Below, piece after piece: positions 3,713-44,129 of a stretch of 64,000 nt of DNA. How positions within the stretch are numbered: the first letter of the stretch is position 1; the number at the start of each line of letters is the position of its first letter. The stretch comes from a virus. A model generated the notes under the pieces. That model saw only the letters and a list, made by a program, of their open reading frames with translations, was not told where the DNA came from and did not search any database. The translations under genes were made by a program, and so were the position numbers. The stretch lies in IMG/VR virus record IMGVR_UViG_3300017917_003379; one strand, 5' to 3'.

Positions 3713-4831
3713 ATGAAAAGCATTAAACAACAGTATATAGATTTAAAAGAAGGTAAAATGTCACAAGCAAACTTTATGCGTAATTTACGCATGACTTTAC
3801 CTCAATATGTAACTAACGTAACTTCATATAATGATGCTGTTAAAATTCTTCGCAACAAAGGTATTTTAAATGAAAGTCTTATTAAGCAACTAGAACAAGG
3901 TATTGAAGTAGAAAAAGAACACACTAGTGATGAAATTAAAGCTGCTGAAATTGCTTTAGATCATTTAAAAGAAAAACCTGACTATTATACTAAATTAAAA
4001 AAAGCCGGTTTAGAAGAAAATAAAAATTGGACTAACGCTAGCGGAAAAGAATTATATAGTCAATTTAAAGAAATTGATAACCTAAATAGCCAAGAAGTAT
4101 TAATTGGTATTGATTTTGAAATTGAACAAAATCATGAGTTATCTAAAGAAGAAGCTGTTAAGATTGTTATTAAAAATTTAAAGAAAAACCCATACTATTA
4201 TACTACTAGTTTAATGGCTGGTAAAAAATTTGAAGAAATACCCACTATTGGAAAATTAACACCTGGTTCTGATAAAATGAAAGAATTTAAAGGTGAAAAC
4301 GATGCTATTGATAAGGACAACATGATGAAACCTGTTAAAGGTATTGATAAACCTAAAAAAGACTCTGATAAAGGTGGTGAAAAAAATAAAATGGTTAAAA
4401 ATGTTTCTTCTATGTCTTTAGTTGCTAAAACATCTCGTGGTGTGCAAAAAATGGCTGCTACTGGTGAAAAAATGAAAACTATCAGAGAAGCAGAAGAAAA
4501 GAAAAATACAGATACATCTTCTAATACAAAAAGTGTACCTAGTACTATTTTTAGCAAAAATGCTAAGTTAAGTGCTAGTATTAGTAAATTAATGGATAAA
4601 GATCCAAATGCTGTTAGTAAACAAAATAGACTTAAAGATATCATTCGTGAATTAATTAAGCAAGAAATGTATGATGGAATGGAACCAATGAGCCGTAAAG
4701 AATTAGATGAAACTGATATATATGGTATTGCTGGTAATCCTGAAAAAGAAAAAGAAGCACGTCTTGCCTCTATAAAAAAATCTAAACCCTCTACAACAAC
4801 AACTAAAAGTACAAAAAAGCCTAAAAAATGA
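3713..4831 (+). CDS. Putative prohead core/internal protein with two DUF5661-like repeats
   Basis: GIEVEKEHT..AAEIALDHLKEKPDYYTKL plus a second degenerate copy. Many (L/I)xE sites. ATGA overlap with the protease gene. Confidence 0.5.
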   Translation: MKSIKQQYIDLKEGKMSQANFMRNLRMTLPQYVTNVTSYNDAVKILRNKGILNESLIKQLEQGIEVEKEHTSDEIKAAEIALDHLKEKPDYYTKLKKAGLEENKNWTNASGKELYSQFKEIDNLNSQEVLIGIDFEIEQNHELSKEEAVKIVIKNLKKNPYYYTTSLMAGKKFEEIPTIGKLTPGSDKMKEFKGENDAIDKDNMMKPVKGIDKPKKDSDKGGEKNKMVKNVSSMSLVAKTSRGVQKMAATGEKMKTIREAEEKKNTDTSSNTKSVPSTIFSKNAKLSASISKLMDKDPNAVSKQNRLKDIIRELIKQEMYDGMEPMSRKELDETDIYGIAGNPEKEKEARLASIKKSKPSTTTTKSTKKPKK

Positions 4832-5442
4832 AACAGCTTTTAATAGAACATATTCCCTTTAGTATAGCTAAACTTACTCTTACTGAAAGTAAGGGTGGTA
4901 GAATGGTATTAGAAGGTAAACTGCAAGAAGCCGAACAAAAAAATGGTAACGGCCGTGTTTATCCTAGAGAAGTATTACAACGCGAAGTAGAAAAATATAT
5001 TAAAGGGCCTATATCCCAAAACAATGCCCTAGGTGAACTAGACCATCCAGAATCATCTGTAATTAATTTATCTAACGTTTCTCATAATATTAAAAAAGTA
5101 TGGTGGGATGATAATAATTTAATGGGTCGTTTAGAATTACTTAACACACCTTCTGGTAAAATTGCTATGGAATTAGTAAGCGCTGGTATTCCTTTAGGAA
5201 TATCATCTCGCGGTATGGGTAGCGTTAAGCAGCTAGGTGAAACAGTTGAAGTACAAGATGACTTTGAATTATTATGTTGGGATCTGGTATCTATACCCAG
5301 CACACCAAATGCTTACATGCAACCTGTTGGTTCATTAAAAGAAGGCAAACAATTTAATACTATTACTAAAGACTATAGCAGAGTAAATTCACTTATTACA
5401 GAAATTATTTGCAGTCAAACTGGTATTTGTCCTTTATGTTAA
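4828..5442 (+). CDS. Prohead maturation protease (T4 gp21-like)
   Basis: NGNGRVYPREVL, GELDHP (His), GISSRGMGS (Ser), WDLVSIPSTPNA (Asp). Confidence 0.92.
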   Translation: MKQLLIEHIPFSIAKLTLTESKGGRMVLEGKLQEAEQKNGNGRVYPREVLQREVEKYIKGPISQNNALGELDHPESSVINLSNVSHNIKKVWWDDNNLMGRLELLNTPSGKIAMELVSAGIPLGISSRGMGSVKQLGETVEVQDDFELLCWDLVSIPSTPNAYMQPVGSLKEGKQFNTITKDYSRVNSLITEIICSQTGICPLC

Positions 5443-5512: not shown

Positions 5513-6196
5513 GTGACACTACAGCAAATAAAACAGTTTTATAAAGCATATAAGCAACAAGTTCTTGATGAAATGCAAGAATACTATGATGCTCCTCTAC
5601 AACATATAGAAAGGATAGAATATAATAAGTGGATAGCCTATGAAAATAATATAAAAGTTAATTTTGTATTTATGCGGCGTTTTGGTAATGATTTATATAA
5701 GCTACCTAATATAATCGATAAAAATCAAATAAAAGAGTATTATGAACGTTCATGGAGTTGGGACGAAACAACTCCCGAAAATGAACGAAACGCTAAAAAT
5801 TTCCTTAGAGTAATAGGTACTAGTTTTAAAATAACCCAACAATTTTTTCAAGATAAACCTAACTGTAAAATTTTACTATTTACCTCATTAACAAAAGGCC
5901 ATAATAGTATATATAGCAATCCATCTAGATATAGCAAAAAACTAATATCAATATTAGGAGACCAATATCATTATATATCAGACCCAGATAACTTTAGGTA
6001 CTGGATTATAAATAAAGATGTAATAAACTATAAAAACCAAAATCATATAAATATACGAATGGAAATGTTAGGAGAAAATATGGATGAAGCTATCAAATAT
6101 TGGTATTATCCTCTAAAATATTCCTCAACTTCTTTAAATGTAAAAATTAAAGCTAAAATAAAGCAAAAAATATTAAGAGAAATATACATAAAATAA
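5513..6196 (+). CDS. Hypothetical protein, possibly related to the 10338 and 39496 products
   Basis: 227-aa ORF with a GTG start. Segment FLRVIGTSFKITQQFF..ILLFTS has a similar pattern to the other two. Confidence 0.5.
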   Translation: MTLQQIKQFYKAYKQQVLDEMQEYYDAPLQHIERIEYNKWIAYENNIKVNFVFMRRFGNDLYKLPNIIDKNQIKEYYERSWSWDETTPENERNAKNFLRVIGTSFKITQQFFQDKPNCKILLFTSLTKGHNSIYSNPSRYSKKLISILGDQYHYISDPDNFRYWIINKDVINYKNQNHINIRMEMLGENMDEAIKYWYYPLKYSSTSLNVKIKAKIKQKILREIYIK

Positions 6197-6255
6197 AATT
6201 AATCGCGATTTTTAATATTTACATATATTTATATCAAACATATCAAAAAAATAAA

Positions 6256-6672
6256 ATGGCCCAATTAATTAACGAAGCAAAAAGAATGCAATTTTTAGCT
6301 GGAATTATTACTGAATCTCAAATAAATGAATTAAATGAACCTGAAAAGGAACTAGTTGATGTTATTTTAGGTGAAGGTATTAATGAAGGAAAATTTAATC
6401 CTAAAGAAATATTAGCTAAATTAATAGCTGTAGCTAAAAAAGGTTTACTTACTGCTACTATTTTATCTACTGTTTTAGCATCTTGTAATTTTGGTCCATC
6501 TGTTGATGAAACTATTAAGAATAGAGTAGAACAACATAAAATTATAAATAGTATGGAATTAGACCAATGGAAAAGAGATGAAACTTTTAAAAATAAAATG
6601 GATAGCCTTAAACAAGATTTAAAAGCAATTGAATATCAATCTGGACTTTCTAATCCTAAAAATCCTTTCTAA
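6256..6672 (+). CDS. Putative head-packaged protein with internal lipoprotein signal
   Basis: Leader LINEAKRMQFLAGIITE. Internal KKGLLTATILSTV-LASC lipobox-like segment. Confidence 0.55.
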   Translation: MAQLINEAKRMQFLAGIITESQINELNEPEKELVDVILGEGINEGKFNPKEILAKLIAVAKKGLLTATILSTVLASCNFGPSVDETIKNRVEQHKIINSMELDQWKRDETFKNKMDSLKQDLKAIEYQSGLSNPKNPF

Positions 6673-6674
6673 GT

Positions 6675-7268
6675 ATGTTAATAAAAGAAGCAAAACGATT
6701 ACAACAATTAGCTGGTATCATTACTGAAGCTGAGCAAGTTGATAGTGCTGAACAAGCCGCTGAAAAAGGATTAATAGATTTTTTAGGAGACATTAAATCA
6801 GCAGCATCAACTATCAAACCATCTCCTAAAGATGGAAAAATACAAGAAGGACTTTTAACATTATTTGCCATCACTGCTGGTGCTCCAGGTTTATTAAATT
6901 TACTAGGTAAAGGAGCTGATTTAATAGGTCAATATTTTTCACAAGGTAATGTAACTTCTACTAAAGTAGGAGCAGCTTTACAAAAAGCAGGACATAGCTT
7001 AGAACATAAGTATATTGAAGCAATTGCCTTTCTATTAAAAAAAGCATATCCTAAAGATTATGGAAATCAAGATCCATTTGATAAATCATCTCCATTACAC
7101 GATACAGCTCATGGAATTTATGCTGCTATACTAGCAGCGGCCGCTGTGGGATCAGGAATAGAAGCAACTAATGCTGTTAATTTAATTGTAAAAGGATTAG
7201 AAGGAGGAGCAGCAGCTTTTAAAACAGCTGAAGTTGTACAATTAGTACAAAAAATAACAACCGTTTAA
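6675..7268 (+). CDS. Putative head-packaged membrane-interacting protein
   Basis: Leader LIKEAKRLQQLAGIITE. Gly/Ala-rich hydrophobic helices. Confidence 0.5.
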   Translation: MLIKEAKRLQQLAGIITEAEQVDSAEQAAEKGLIDFLGDIKSAASTIKPSPKDGKIQEGLLTLFAITAGAPGLLNLLGKGADLIGQYFSQGNVTSTKVGAALQKAGHSLEHKYIEAIAFLLKKAYPKDYGNQDPFDKSSPLHDTAHGIYAAILAAAAVGSGIEATNAVNLIVKGLEGGAAAFKTAEVVQLVQKITTV

Positions 7269-7425
7269 AAATTAATCGCGGTTTTTAATATTTACATATA
7301 TTTATAGGTAGCCTACAATAGCTACCTATTTTTATTTATGGTAGTTTGGTAACACAATAACCCCCATTAAGCTTCCCCTACAATAAGCTTATTTCCAAAA
7401 AACAAATTTAAGGAGAAAAAAACAA

Positions 7426-8505
7426 ATGAGTAACAAAAACTTATTCAAAGAGGCTATCGCCGACGCCAAAGCCGTTCGCGAAGCAGCGTTAGCAAACGCA
7501 AAAGCCGCTCTTGAAGAAGCTTTAACTCCCAAACTTCAGTCTATGTTAGCTGCAAAGCTTAATGAAATGGCTGATGAAGAAGAGCTTGAAGAAGCAAGAG
7601 ACGACGAAAATGAAATGGAAGAAGGAATGCATCCTGACATTACCGGAGACACTATTCAAGACAAATACCGTGCAACTGGTGCTGCTCTTGAAGAAATGGG
7701 GATGGATATGGAAATAGATGAAGAAGACTTCGACTTATCTGAAATTTTAGCTGAACTTGAAGATGAAGAAGAAATTGAAGAAGATTTTGATTTATCTGAA
7801 ATCTTAGCTGAATTGAAAGAAGAAAAAGAAGAAGAGGAAGAGGAAGAAGAGGAAGAAGAAGAGAAAGAAGAGGAAGATGAAGAATTAGAGATCAAAGACA
7901 TGAGTGTTGAAGATCTTAAAGATCTTATCCGCGACATCGTATCCCAAGAAATGGAAGAAGAAGCTCCTGCTGGTGAAATGGAAGCTGAACCTTCTATGGA
8001 AATGGGTGGTGAAGAAATGACTAGCGATGATGAAGATGAGATTGATTTAGAAGAACTTTTAGCTGAATTAGATTCTTTAGACGGAACATCCGAGCTTGAA
8101 GAAGCTAAGAAGAAAAAAGCTAAGCAAGATGAAAAAGCTAAAAAAGAAAAAGAAAAAGAACTTGCTGAGGCTATTAGAACTATTAACACCCTTCGTAAAG
8201 AATTAAACGAAGTTAACTTATTAAATGCTAAGTTAATTTATGTTAACAAAATCTTTAAAGCTAAGAATTTAACTGAATCACAAAAAGTAAAAGTAATTTC
8301 TTCGTTTGACCAAGCAACAACTGTAAAAGAAGCTAAAGTTGTATTTGAATCCTTAAATATGGCTTTAACAACAGCTCCTGCCAAAAAGCAAATTAAAGAA
8401 TCTTTAGGATTTGCTTCTAAAGCTGCTGGTGTAGCTCCTAAAAAAGTAATTGTTGAGTCTAATGACGTAATTGCTCGTATGCAAAAACTTGCAAACATTA
8501 AATAA
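7426..8505 (+). CDS. Prohead scaffold protein (T4 gp22-like)
   Basis: Very acidic coiled coil between protease and capsid genes. Many LxE sites. C-terminus RMQKLANIK. Confidence 0.8.
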   Translation: MSNKNLFKEAIADAKAVREAALANAKAALEEALTPKLQSMLAAKLNEMADEEELEEARDDENEMEEGMHPDITGDTIQDKYRATGAALEEMGMDMEIDEEDFDLSEILAELEDEEEIEEDFDLSEILAELKEEKEEEEEEEEEEEEKEEEDEELEIKDMSVEDLKDLIRDIVSQEMEEEAPAGEMEAEPSMEMGGEEMTSDDEDEIDLEELLAELDSLDGTSELEEAKKKKAKQDEKAKKEKEKELAEAIRTINTLRKELNEVNLLNAKLIYVNKIFKAKNLTESQKVKVISSFDQATTVKEAKVVFESLNMALTTAPAKKQIKESLGFASKAAGVAPKKVIVESNDVIARMQKLANIK

Positions 8506-8542: not shown

Positions 8543-10183
8543 ATGAACATCCAACAATTATTAGAGTCGTCTAACCAATATAAGGTTATTGCTGACGACG
8601 CAAGAAAACTTAACTCCAAGTGGGTTAAATCTGGCCTTTTAGAAGGTTTAAAGAATGAGAACGATCGCAACACTATGGCGATGTTACTCGAAAACCAAGC
8701 TAAGCAATTAGTAACTGAAGCTTCTCAAACTGGTACTGCTACCATCGGTGGTGGTGGATATGGTCAGGAAGCTTGGAATGGTGTAGCTTTACCATTAGTA
8801 CGTCGTGTATTTGGTGAAATCGCCGCTAAAGAATTCGTTAGTGTACAGCCTATGAATTTACCTTCTGGTCTTGTATTCTATTTAGATTTCAAATACGGTA
8901 GCAACTTCCCCGATCCTTTCACCCAGAATGGTTCTTTATATGGTGCTAACGCTACTACTAACGTAACTGACATTGCTTCTCAGTCGCTTTATGGTGCTGG
9001 TCGCTTTGGTTACACTATCAACCAATTCTCTGCTTCTATTACCAATGCTGGTACTAGTTCAGCTACATGGGCTGATTTCAACTTTGATTCTGACTATTCA
9101 GCTTCTGCTGCTGCTGGTTCTTGGAAGAAAATCTTAGTTCCCCTTCCTTCTACTGCTGATCAGCTTGGCGTTCGTGCTTTCACTATCGCTTCTGGTTCTA
9201 TCGGTGTAAGTGATGTATTACAAGCTTTCACTACTGTAACTAACAGTACTGCTTCGTTTATTGTTACTGGTTCGCTTGTAGCTGCTAATATGAGTCCTAC
9301 TGCTGCTACTGTAACATTATATTTCAATGTTGCTCCTCTTTCTACTGCTCGTGGTGATTTTGAAGATGCTAGCGGTGCTGGTTATCCTTCATACAACAGC
9401 ACAGCTGCTGGTGCAGGTAGTGCAATTGCTATTCCTGAAATCAATGTTCAGTTAAAATCTGAGCCTATTGTTGCTAAAACTCGTAAGTTAAAAGCACAGT
9501 GGACTCCAGAATTCGCTCAGGATCTTAACGCTTACCATAGTGTAGATGCTGAAGCTGAATTAACTGGTATTCTATCTCAGTACATCTCTATGGAAATCGA
9601 CCTCGAAATTCTAGATATGTTAATCCAAAATGCTTTCACTAAAGATTACTGGAGTGCTGTCAACAACGTAACTATCGACTCTAACGGTGTTACTAATCCT
9701 GCTGCTTTAGCTTCTGGTTATTACAACACTCAGGGTGGTTGGTTCCAAACTTTAGGTACTAAACTTCAGAAAGTATCTAACAAAATTCATCAGTTAACTC
9801 TTCGTGGTGGCGCTAACTTCCTCGTAACTTCTCCCACTGTAGCTACTATCCTTGAATCTATTCCTGGATTTGCTGCTGATGGTGATGGTGAAAAGATGGA
9901 ATTCAACTTCGGTATTCAGAAGGTTGGTTCTCTCAATAGCCGTTACAAGGTTTATAAGAACCCATACATGACTGAAAACGTAATCTTAATGGGTTACAAA
10001 GGTGCTCAGTTCCTTGAGTGTGGTGCTGTATTTGCTCCATATGTGCCTTTAATCATGACTCCTCTTCTTTACGATCCTAATACCTTCACTCCACGTAAAG
10101 GTTTGATGACTCGTTACGCTAAGAAGATGATTAGACCGGACTATTATGGGAAGATTTATGTTAGTGGTTTAAATACTCTCTAA
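8543..10183 (+). CDS. Major capsid protein (T4 gp23-like)
   Basis: LPLVRRVF, VSVQPMNLPSGLVFYLDF, AKTRKLKAQWTPEFAQDLNAYH, EIDLEIL, YVPL, FTPRKGLMTRYA. Strongly biased codon usage. Confidence 0.96.
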   Translation: MNIQQLLESSNQYKVIADDARKLNSKWVKSGLLEGLKNENDRNTMAMLLENQAKQLVTEASQTGTATIGGGGYGQEAWNGVALPLVRRVFGEIAAKEFVSVQPMNLPSGLVFYLDFKYGSNFPDPFTQNGSLYGANATTNVTDIASQSLYGAGRFGYTINQFSASITNAGTSSATWADFNFDSDYSASAAAGSWKKILVPLPSTADQLGVRAFTIASGSIGVSDVLQAFTTVTNSTASFIVTGSLVAANMSPTAATVTLYFNVAPLSTARGDFEDASGAGYPSYNSTAAGAGSAIAIPEINVQLKSEPIVAKTRKLKAQWTPEFAQDLNAYHSVDAEAELTGILSQYISMEIDLEILDMLIQNAFTKDYWSAVNNVTIDSNGVTNPAALASGYYNTQGGWFQTLGTKLQKVSNKIHQLTLRGGANFLVTSPTVATILESIPGFAADGDGEKMEFNFGIQKVGSLNSRYKVYKNPYMTENVILMGYKGAQFLECGAVFAPYVPLIMTPLLYDPNTFTPRKGLMTRYAKKMIRPDYYGKIYVSGLNTL

Positions 10184-42253: not shown

Positions 42254-42895
42254 ATGATAAAACTAATAGATATATTAAATGAAGCTATAAATAAAGATAT
42301 TGTTTATATCTACAGAAGTCAAAAAAGTTTACCCGATATTGAAGCCAATGGTATAAAAATGTCAGATAAAAATAAACAAAATTCTGAAGATTATAATATT
42401 CCTGATTATGGGTATACTTATTATACCTCTACTAGTAAAAATTCTAACTGGATTGATAGAAATCCATATGGAAATGCTGATAATCCGTATACTGTAAGAG
42501 TATCTATAGACTTAAATAAAATAAAAAACGATAAAAATTATAGTTTTAAAGATTTAAATGATGTAGAAGGATGGAACTACCCAGAGTATCAAGAAGTAAG
42601 AATATATTCTAATACAAAAGATAGAATACCCCCAGAATATATTAGTTCTATTGATATTCTTAGAAGAAAATCGGGAGATGAATATGGATGGGATTTTATT
42701 GGTAAACTTGACCTAGAACCAGAAGTAAAAGCATACATTGATAATACTTTTAAAGAAAACCCAGACTTAGATGAAGATTCGTTCCCATACGATGAAATGT
42801 ATGATTATTTTACAGAATTTTGGAATCATGAAGATGAGTCTTATGATGATGTTTCTCGAGAAGTTATAGATTATATAAGATCTAAAGTTAGTTAA
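42254..42895 (+). CDS. Putative head-packaged ADP-ribosyltransferase-like protein
   Basis: Leader MIKLIDILNE, then YIYRS, YTSTS, EYQEV and IPPEYI in the order of R-S-E ART motifs. Confidence 0.5.
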   Translation: MIKLIDILNEAINKDIVYIYRSQKSLPDIEANGIKMSDKNKQNSEDYNIPDYGYTYYTSTSKNSNWIDRNPYGNADNPYTVRVSIDLNKIKNDKNYSFKDLNDVEGWNYPEYQEVRIYSNTKDRIPPEYISSIDILRRKSGDEYGWDFIGKLDLEPEVKAYIDNTFKENPDLDEDSFPYDEMYDYFTEFWNHEDESYDDVSREVIDYIRSKVS

Positions 42896-43251
42896 TGAGT
42901 AAATTAATAGAAAATATTCATTATGTAATTGAAAAGAATAGGGCGGTATTTACTGCCCTATATCTTATTCAACAAGGAAAATGTTGTGGTAACGGTTGTA
43001 GAAATTGTCCTTATGATCCTAAACACCAAAAAGAAAATGTGGTGTTGGCAAAAAAAATTCTTAATTTTGAAATTATGAGATTAGAAGAAATACAAAAACA
43101 ACTTGAACAGATTCAATCAGTAAATTTTGAATCTACTCCTCCAGAACAATTAGAAAAAATAATTGAACAATTAGTATCAATGGTTGATACTGGAGAAGAA
43201 TTATTAAATAATGAAATACAAAAAATCAATACAGATGAACCAGACAATTGA
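42895..43251 (+). CDS. Cys-rich (DUF5522-like) protein, possibly with an internal second gene
   Basis: GKCCGNGCRNCPY. Internal TAATTTTG promoter box and ATG at 43075. Confidence 0.55.
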   Translation: MSKLIENIHYVIEKNRAVFTALYLIQQGKCCGNGCRNCPYDPKHQKENVVLAKKILNFEIMRLEEIQKQLEQIQSVNFESTPPEQLEKIIEQLVSMVDTGEELLNNEIQKINTDEPDN

Positions 43252-43444
43252 AGATGTTTTAATGGTAGTAGGATTATTAATACTAGCATGTTTATTATTT
43301 GGAGGCCCACTAATGTTATTATGGAATTGGCTTATGCCTGAAATATTTGGTTTGCCTTATATTACATTTTGGCAAGCATTTGGATTACAACTTATGTCTG
43401 TTTTACTATTTAAATCATCTAATGCTAAATTAAAAAAAGATTAA
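43235..43444 (+). CDS. Small membrane protein
   Basis: Two hydrophobic helices. LWNWLMPEIFGLPYITFWQAFGL. Confidence 0.65.
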   Translation: MNQTIEDVLMVVGLLILACLLFGGPLMLLWNWLMPEIFGLPYITFWQAFGLQLMSVLLFKSSNAKLKKD

Positions 43445-43445
43445 A

Positions 43446-44129
43446 ATGAAAAAAGGTTATATTTTAGCAGTAATTATTCTACTCTTAGTATTTACTGGTT
43501 GTAAAAAAATTCTTCAACTTAGAGATGATCCGTATCCTTTTGAAAATGGCAAACGATCAAAGCTAGTCATGTTGTATCCTAAAGATACTAGAGGATATTA
43601 TTTAGTTCCATTAGATACAACAACCAATTCAAATTCATATAGCATCTATGTTGAAGCAACTAAATTAATTCCTTTCTATTGGTATAATGGAGTATCAGTA
43701 ATGAGTGTTAAATTTGATTGTAATTCACACTGGGTATTAGGAACAACATCAGGAGATTTAGCTGTTACATTACCATTATATAATCCGTTTACTAGTTTAT
43801 ATAGTAATCCTTATTTTAACACTCCGTTACCTGTTAGAGATACAGTTATAGTATTAAACCATTATAGAAATAGTATTGTGCCTGTAGTACAAGAATCAAA
43901 TATATATTTAAAAGAATACTTTGCTGGTAATATGTATCAACCTGCTGATGAGTATCAACCTGAAGCAGGAATGTATTGGGGTAAACGTATTATAGGTCCT
44001 ATTCCAAAGTATTTTAAAGATGATACAATAACAGTATACTCTAAAATATTTTGGGATGCGGGAAATTATACTTATCTTCACCCAAATGAAACAACAAAAA
44101 TTGATAGTGTAAAAATAATCTTTAAATAA
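43446..44129 (+). CDS. Lipoprotein
   Basis: MKK, hydrophobic core, lipobox FTGC. Confidence 0.7.
   Translation: MKKGYILAVIILLLVFTGCKKILQLRDDPYPFENGKRSKLVMLYPKDTRGYYLVPLDTTTNSNSYSIYVEATKLIPFYWYNGVSVMSVKFDCNSHWVLGTTSGDLAVTLPLYNPFTSLYSNPYFNTPLPVRDTVIVLNHYRNSIVPVVQESNIYLKEYFAGNMYQPADEYQPEAGMYWGKRIIGPIPKYFKDDTITVYSKIFWDAGNYTYLHPNETTKIDSVKIIFK

Follow-up and report, generated by a model that had tools for sequence, protein, structure and literature searches.

A candidate export signal behind a predicted head-protease leader in a T4-like phage of the Flavobacteriia

Could a phage head carry a protein whose signal peptide is silent when the protein is made and becomes exposed only when the head protease has acted? 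The question is raised by an open reading frame (ORF) at positions 6256-6672 (+ strand) of a 64,000-nucleotide stretch of viral DNA (the window), which is part of a 155-kb IMG/VR virus record and is AT-rich (31% GC). The first-pass annotation of this ORF had read a leader with protease-type sites followed by a lipoprotein-type signal. It had proposed that the leader masks the signal in the producing cell, that head maturation unmasks it and that the injected protein is lipidated in the next host, for example for superinfection exclusion. The ORF has 138 codons for amino acids, and its translation is exactly the one quoted there.

A putative tagged cargo gene within a T4-type head module

The closest named relative of the phage is Flavobacterium phage vB_FspM_immuto (immuto below), and we take the phage to be a T4-like Flavobacteriia myovirus. 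The target ORF is surrounded by a T4-type head module, all genes of which lie on the + strand. Upstream are a gene for a DUF5661 protein (3713-4831), a gene for a T4 gp21-like prohead core serine protease (4828-5442; Peptidase_S77, Pfam PF03420, E=2.9e-30; PHROG 207 head maturation protease, E=1.4e-56), the presumed processing enzyme, and a further ORF (5513-6196). Downstream are a second tagged cargo gene (6675-7268) that begins MLIKEAKRLQQLAGIITE, the gene of the acidic gp22-like prohead scaffold protein (7426-8505), assigned from its place in the interval between the protease and the major capsid protein (MCP) and from homology to the immuto scaffold, and the MCP gene of the gp23 family (8543-10183; Pfam PF07068, E=5.3e-79). 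The target gene is found between the S77 protease gene and the scaffold and gp23 genes of this Pfam- and PHROG-supported module, and the same gene position is seen in nine related loci (L004, L005, L007, L011, L012, L015, L022, L023 and L024). An o-spanin reading of the target was rejected, as the gene lies between head genes, close to the second tagged cargo gene and the scaffold gene, and not in or beside a lysis cassette of i-spanin, holin or endolysin genes.

A 39-nt direct repeat brackets the two-gene cargo cassette. Copy 1 (6195-6233, + strand) lies just 5' of the target gene and copy 2 (7268-7306, + strand) lies 5' of the scaffold gene; the two are 97% identical and within the window their 25-nt core occurs only at these two places (0.03 expected by chance). 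The repeat could be either a promoter-like shared upstream element or the footprint of a cassette insertion, and its presence ahead of both the target and the scaffold genes fits co-expression. Two other gene pairs are of note. In a related locus (L015:8738-9641) the protease-scaffold interval holds an Amidase_2 endolysin-like gene and a gene for a 79-residue two-helix holin-like membrane protein, both without a cargo tag. In the window, positions 43211-43444 encode a 77-residue membrane protein and the adjoining gene (43446-44129) encodes a canonical N-terminal lipoprotein of 227 residues (MKKGYILAVIILLLVFTGC), so the phage also encodes ordinary lipoprotein precursors.

The target protein can be divided into five segments, all encoded on the + strand. 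Residues 1-25 (6256-6330) are a capsid-targeting-type tag, MAQLINEAKRMQFLAGIITESQINE, and residues 26-44 (6331-6387) form an acidic linker helix, EPEKELVDVILGEGINE, that ends INE44|G45. A basic amphipathic n-region of net charge +4 follows (residues 45-62, 6388-6441; GKFNPKEILAKLIAVAKK) and leads into the uncharged h-region GLLTATILSTV and the lipobox LASC (residues 63-77, 6442-6486). The latter segment, GLLTATILSTVLAS, is a run of 15 uncharged residues, Cys included. The rest (residues 78-138, 6487-6669) is a short, poorly conserved helical passenger domain of no known family. The lipobox Cys, which had been placed about 76 residues in, is present and is exactly residue 77 (codon TGT at 6484-6486, preceded by KK-GLLTATILSTV-LAS). 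Pfam and PHROG searches gave no family for the target or for ten long relatives, and tblastn against 50,697 phage records gave no match to the target. A Foldseek search of the AlphaFold2 (AF2) model against the PDB gave no match at E<=0.001, and an ESM Atlas structure search gave no usable match.

The tag is not peculiar to this protein. More than 35 proteins that have unrelated bodies carry it at 85-96% identity, the match being limited to residues 1-25, and the stretch MAQLINEAKRMQFLAGxITE is near-identical across them. Some of the tagged bodies are soluble and some have hydrophobic stretches; the immuto genome encodes two soluble cargoes with such a tag (record positions 111675 and 25061). 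The tag core KRMQFLAGII resembles the C-termini of scaffold proteins, ARMQKLANIK in the window (8473-8502) and SRWQKLAGIIK in phage immuto, with similar scaffold C-terminal motifs in L004, L007 and L012. These alignments support the view of the leader as a cargo tag of general use, modeled on the C-terminus of the scaffold protein, and the presence of the same tags on many soluble cargoes argues that they are generic packaging tags. In T4, proteins of many kinds, foreign ones included, are brought into the prohead by a capsid targeting sequence (CTS) of 10 residues; gp21 then cuts off the CTS at L/I-x-E, and the DNA and the cargo pass into the host together (PMC9026906, PMC3012670). On every feature that can be tested from sequence (a T4-type head module, a shared tag and an L/I-x-E boundary) the target protein is a member of the CTS-tagged internal head proteins, and we regard its packaging and cleavage as likely.

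The neighboring cargo gene (6675-7268) encodes a predicted IQE|G site directly before a Gly/Ala-rich hydrophobic stretch, GLLTLFAITAGAPGLL, with no lipobox, and there are more Ala/Gly-rich segments further on. Predicted cleavage of this product would expose a fusion-peptide-like N-terminus. It has homologues in P0051 and L007:1186-2130, and tblastn against the named phages gave no match to it. Note that many tagged cargoes carry a second conserved motif, (S/D)I(E/D)xxVNEAL(R/K)KFRK, that is absent from the target. The motif is mostly C-terminal (P0004, P0010, P0016, P0037, P0047, P0052 and P0053) and is internal in L007:1186-2130 and L009:3-686; it may be a second address or processing tag.

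A candidate signal module behind predicted protease sites

That the leader holds several (I/L)xE sites, the last being GINE|G, was borne out: the predicted sites end at residues 7, 20, 25, 28, 40 and 44. Past GINE44|G45 (residues 45-138) there is a single V-x-E, which is not conserved. Across 18 family sequences the density of [LIV]xE is 0.092 per residue before the signal versus 0.006 after it, the composition-expected values being 0.037 and 0.014, respectively; as the 18 sequences are related, this contrast is a pattern rather than an independent statistic. The distance from the last site to the Cys is 33 residues in 15 of 16 tagged lipobox sequences and 32 residues in the other, and within this set the Cys falls anywhere from residue 55 to residue 131. 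The same cleavage rule fits the MCP at QLVTE59|A, with V at position -3, and Q55-A60 is invariant in four relatives. In the AF2 model of the target the pLDDT is below 50 at residues 20-24 and 41-45, the predicted cut loops.

The fragment that starts at the last predicted site, G45-F138, agrees with both the pattern and the position rule of PROSITE PS51257, as its Cys is residue 33 (allowed range 15-35) and K2 and K6 place a Lys within the first seven residues. The n-region is long (18 residues) and thus Cys33 lies at the upper edge of lipoprotein signals. The full-length protein fails the position rule because its Cys is at residue 77. As encoded, the target is no canonical lipoprotein precursor and would become one only after the predicted cut. 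An internal start codon is ruled out for the target gene: as had been noted, there is no nearby Met, and codons 31-77 contain no ATG, GTG or TTG, only ATT and ATA.

The bare lipobox pattern is not rare (about 10 internal matches among the 51,765 residues of six-frame ORFs of the genome) so the argument depends on how well the pattern is conserved. The post-leader part (alignment A2) was used in an exhaustive profile search of 1.84 billion representative proteins, which gave 43 clusters, and these plus earlier matches make up a census of 57 modules in 55 proteins. Lipobox modules account for 30 of the 57 and all 30 keep [VI]L[AST]SC, down to ~35% identity. Conservation of LASC among homologues, proposed earlier as a check, is thus seen for the Cys throughout the lipobox subfamily, and a chance lipobox is ruled out. 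In a further 24 modules, termed type I, the Cys column is occupied by Pro or Thr, after which comes N[FL][ST]QA|Q, ASA, AEA, SAA or TSA. These ends have small residues at -3 and -1 a few residues past a helix breaker, the signature of signal peptidase I, and SPNFSQA|Q places such an end at the same columns as the lipobox. The remaining three modules have neither a lipobox nor an end of the signal peptidase I type. In some type-I relatives the cut site is closely followed by Met or Val (NEG-M-F), and those genes, unlike the target gene, may have an internal start.

The other elements of the module are shared. The uncharged run is 15 residues long in 36 of the 57 modules, which by length is signal-like and too short for a membrane anchor, and the maximum hydrophobicity (KD19) is 1.62. 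[LIVM]xE is found 12-19 residues upstream of the h-region in 54 of the 57. The mean charge is -4.5 in the 20 residues before the cut, +3.0 in the n-region and -0.55 after the h-region, so that the mature fragment obeys the positive-inside rule whereas the pro-form does not. From these comparisons, retention of the n- and h-regions while two peptidase grammars swap would be hard to explain unless the module is an export signal, and we think it probable that in some cell the module does serve as a membrane or export signal.

The module is found behind three classes of tag: the scaffold-tail class, a class (MxNFDLKKFLVE|N) that we take to resemble the T4 CTS, and a third class; lipobox and type-I signals each occur behind all three. 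(The third, LIxLLKE-like class is also seen in the window, where the ORF at 42254-42895 starts MIKLIDILNEAINKD, as well as on P0082 and P0090.) Its start varies between proteins, from residue 13 to residue 303. A polyprotein encoded directly after an S77 protease gene (P0070/P0091) has two full signal-plus-passenger units, each behind LSE|N; the L024 gene encodes three tags with the lipobox Cys near residue 320; and P0062 has the order tag, cargo, linker, lipobox with the Cys at residue 165. This independence of position argues against a merely long N-terminal signal peptide and for release by the protease. A long signal of the ESPR (extended signal peptide region) type, in which a conserved extension adjoins the signal at a short and constant distance from the N-terminus, was rejected for the same reason, the module having starts between residues 13 and 303 and being present twice in one protein, and also because the same extension is found on proteins that have no signal.

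Among cultured phages the type-I form is represented in immuto (gp3, QQO91682.1; L016:1803-2318), where it follows a T4-CTS-like tag, MENFDLKKFLVE; tblastn against the named phages matched the type-I module only in this phage. The immuto gene lies between those of DNA polymerase A and the ssDNA-binding protein and is outside the head module, as is the module gene of L014. Our literature search turned up no virion proteome of phage immuto, nor one that covers another member of the family. Several other relatives should be recorded. A scan of viral contigs for relatives gave four loci only. P0085 looks like an HD-domain gene read through into a tagged module gene, the tag starting at Met170, and in L010 a lipobox member lies directly 3' of a GroEL-like C-terminus. 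P0006 is closely related and seems to lack the leader; it is known from one contig of 972 nt, its N-terminus is odd and it is given little weight.

Other leaderless homologues provide a natural control. Eight 90%-identity clusters (P0067 and P0092-98), from several samples, lack both tag and linker. The clusters begin MHENKVKLAAKKGVLTTAIISSVLASC, with P0098 beginning MKILTKLLYAAKK, and have stop codons just upstream. They have the canonical form of lipoprotein precursors with the lipobox Cys at residue 27-28, and they are homologous over the full length to the tagged proteins P0058 and P0099, the signal region being identical in both forms. Thus, the same signal-plus-passenger exists as an ordinary lipoprotein precursor. 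The L020 neighbors of these genes encode secreted proteins and lipoproteins of Bacteroidota style (Fib_succ_major, LVTSC). The species-representative genomes that were scanned gave no relative of the leaderless homologues, so a bacterial context is provided only by the L020 neighbors. These homologies suggest exchange between lipoprotein genes of the host and cargo genes of the phage, with the signal peptide carried along.

Proposed unmasking and the cell in which the signal would act

From the gene context, the shared tag, the position of the cut site, the signal grammar and the lipoprotein homology we infer packaging, cleavage, ejection, export and lipidation as follows. The target and scaffold genes, each preceded by a copy of the 39-nt element, would be expressed together, and the 20-25 residue tag of the target would mimic the C-terminal helix of the scaffold protein and dock the target into the assembling prohead core. 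The acidic linker would neutralize the basic n-region in the pro-form until the S77 protease cuts the six (L/I)xE sites in residues 1-44, removing tag and linker. The G45-F138 product would stay in the head, its new N-terminus being a complete lipoprotein-type signal peptide. Upon ejection with the DNA the protein, probably unfolded and so export-competent, would engage Sec at the inner membrane of the new host, where Lgt would lipid-modify Cys77 and LspA would cleave. The outcome would be a 62-residue helical lipoprotein on the periplasmic face, installed before any phage gene expression.

We give this whole chain, from packaging through protease unmasking and ejection to export and lipidation in the next host, a probability of about 0.4. 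Use of the signal after ejection rather than in the producing cell is a close call that falls slightly short of even, and lipidation of Cys77 is rated a little lower. The broader proposal, that Bacteroidota T4-like phages package pre-secretory proteins whose Sec signals (type I or lipoprotein type), kept silent in the producer cell by a capsid-targeting tag and an acidic pro-region, are unmasked by the head protease for export and lipidation by the next host, is somewhat unlikely on present data. The first-pass proposal that a leader masks the signal and maturation unmasks it stands in its architecture, in that the comparisons give a removable leader, a conserved protease-type site and a signal that would then be N-terminal. 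The tag itself does not appear to be the mask, a role that probably falls to the conserved acidic linker. An early envelope-level role of the passenger is only a guess, and superinfection exclusion by this protein is speculation.

Several observations count against the chain. For a signal peptide, the degree of conservation in the h-region is unusual. By segment, conservation is highest in the h-region and lipobox (majority fraction 0.80) and falls to 0.47 to 0.34 in the passenger, with G63, L64 and T66 invariant; this hints at a more specific role. In P0068, a close relative, the Cys is kept and the segment corresponding to the h-region is charged. Moreover, Cys33 of the fragment is at the limit of the usual range, the immuto and L014 genes lie outside head modules and the AF2 model buries the h-region (see below). 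A caveat is that the chain would require the pro-form to avoid Sec in the producing cell.

Export in the producing cell is the main rival. The internal segment would be a signal or signal-anchor, the passenger being exported late and lipidated or cleaved there, and the cytoplasmic tag and linker would have another role, such as a membrane tether for the prohead until protease release or regulation of export. We think this unlikely, although the signal grammar is intact in the full-length protein, N-terminal extensions need not block Sec and the leaderless homologues indicate that the signal works as an ordinary N-terminal one. The location of the immuto and L014 genes would also fit, as would the finding that T4 proheads are built on the inner membrane and stay bound to it until proteolysis (PMC9026906). 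Against this rival, the module can be placed 150-320 residues inside polyproteins and twice per protein, and two identical units cannot share a topology unless they are first cut apart. Moreover, the pro-form has a negative net charge in its N-flank, 15 uncharged residues would not suffice for a stable anchor, the cut site lies at a fixed, conserved distance and the tags are those of many soluble cargoes.

A second alternative keeps packaging and ejection and dispenses with Sec export and lipidation: the hydrophobic N-terminus would only insert into or perturb the host membrane (as an anchor, a channel or a fusion-peptide-like element) and the Cys would serve another purpose. Neighboring tagged cargoes having a Gly/Ala-rich hydrophobic stretch after the predicted cut and no lipobox (ORF 6675-7268, P0017, P0028 and L011:1251-1715) fit this reading, and the conserved GLLT..I suggests specific helix packing. 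However, 54 of the 57 modules obey signal peptidase II or signal peptidase I rules at the helix end, for which mere insertion gives no explanation, and the leaderless homologues are canonical lipoprotein precursors. We consider insertion alone quite unlikely.

Very unlikely, in our view, is a structural helix whose likeness to a signal is incidental, either the buried core of a small soluble domain or an oligomerization element of the prohead core: AF2 does fold residues 49-131 as a helical bundle that buries the h-region (pLDDT 70-85), the segment is more conserved than the rest of the target and P0068 has the charged version, but the module precedes many unrelated passengers, so that it cannot be the core of a single fold, its peptidase site is of one kind in some members and of another in others, and the homologues use it as an N-terminal lipoprotein signal. 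The all-helical model (pLDDT 68.6, pTM 0.65) was made from an alignment of only 15 sequences, and AF2 commonly packs signal helices when the membrane is absent from the model.

If unmasking and export after ejection prove true, phages could direct proteins made in advance to the periplasm or membranes of the next host by way of its export and lipidation pathways, and periplasmic and lipid-anchored effectors would be installed within seconds of infection. This would be a new route for immediate-early envelope remodeling, exclusion or counter-defense, and it would show that protease-gated signal peptides occur in nature. Sequence alone is enough to predict such cargo, by the rule tag, [LIV]xE, signal. 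Since the cultured phage immuto carries the type-I version as gp3, the idea is directly testable, and the leaderless homologues are a ready comparison.

Comparison with known systems

The nearest likeness is to the T4 internal proteins IPI, IPII, IPIII and Alt, in which a short conserved N-terminal tag is found on otherwise unrelated proteins. The (L/I)xE sites and the S77 prohead protease are also shared, cleavage in the present case being predicted from sequence. Unlike the T4 CTS, the main tag of this family is modeled on the C-terminal helix of the scaffold protein, and a conserved acidic linker comes after it. A further difference is that the T4 internal proteins are soluble, basic and act in the cytoplasm, whereas the predicted mature N-terminus of the target is a Sec-type signal (type I or II in the family), and the target would be aimed at the envelope.

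The signal has the same n-region, h-region and lipobox grammar as bacterial lipoprotein precursors (PS51257; Lgt/LspA). In contrast to those precursors, it begins at residue 45 (up to residue 303 in relatives), has no start codon of its own and is preceded by tag, acidic linker and protease-type site. Llp of T5 and Cor of phi80 and N15 are likewise small phage lipoproteins of the Gram-negative envelope, and the target could, like them, act at the start of infection. However, T5 Llp is made from the injected genome with an ordinary N-terminal signal, whereas the target precursor would be pre-made, packaged and unmasked by a protease. Membership in the Llp/Cor-type exclusion lipoproteins was rejected: the target is not similar to them in sequence, falls in no family of Pfam or PHROGs and has no tblastn match in the 50,697 phage records.

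Our literature search found no precedent for a packaged or injected lipoprotein or secretory precursor, nor for post-translational export and lipidation of an injected protein. To our knowledge all known injected phage proteins (T4 IPI* and Alt, the N4 vRNAP and the podovirus ejection proteins) either have a cytoplasmic role or make up the DNA channel. A further parallel is found in non-enveloped animal viruses. In adenovirus protein VI, picornavirus VP4 and the nodavirus gamma peptide, maturation cleavage creates or frees a membrane-active peptide that is stored in the particle and released onto the host membrane at entry, and VP4 is also lipid-modified. In those viruses the peptides serve to breach membranes during entry, any lipidation takes place in the producer cell and there is no homology to the target, whereas the target would co-opt the secretion and lipidation pathway of the next cell. 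The new element is the latent signal, and export after ejection, if real, would be a new mechanism.
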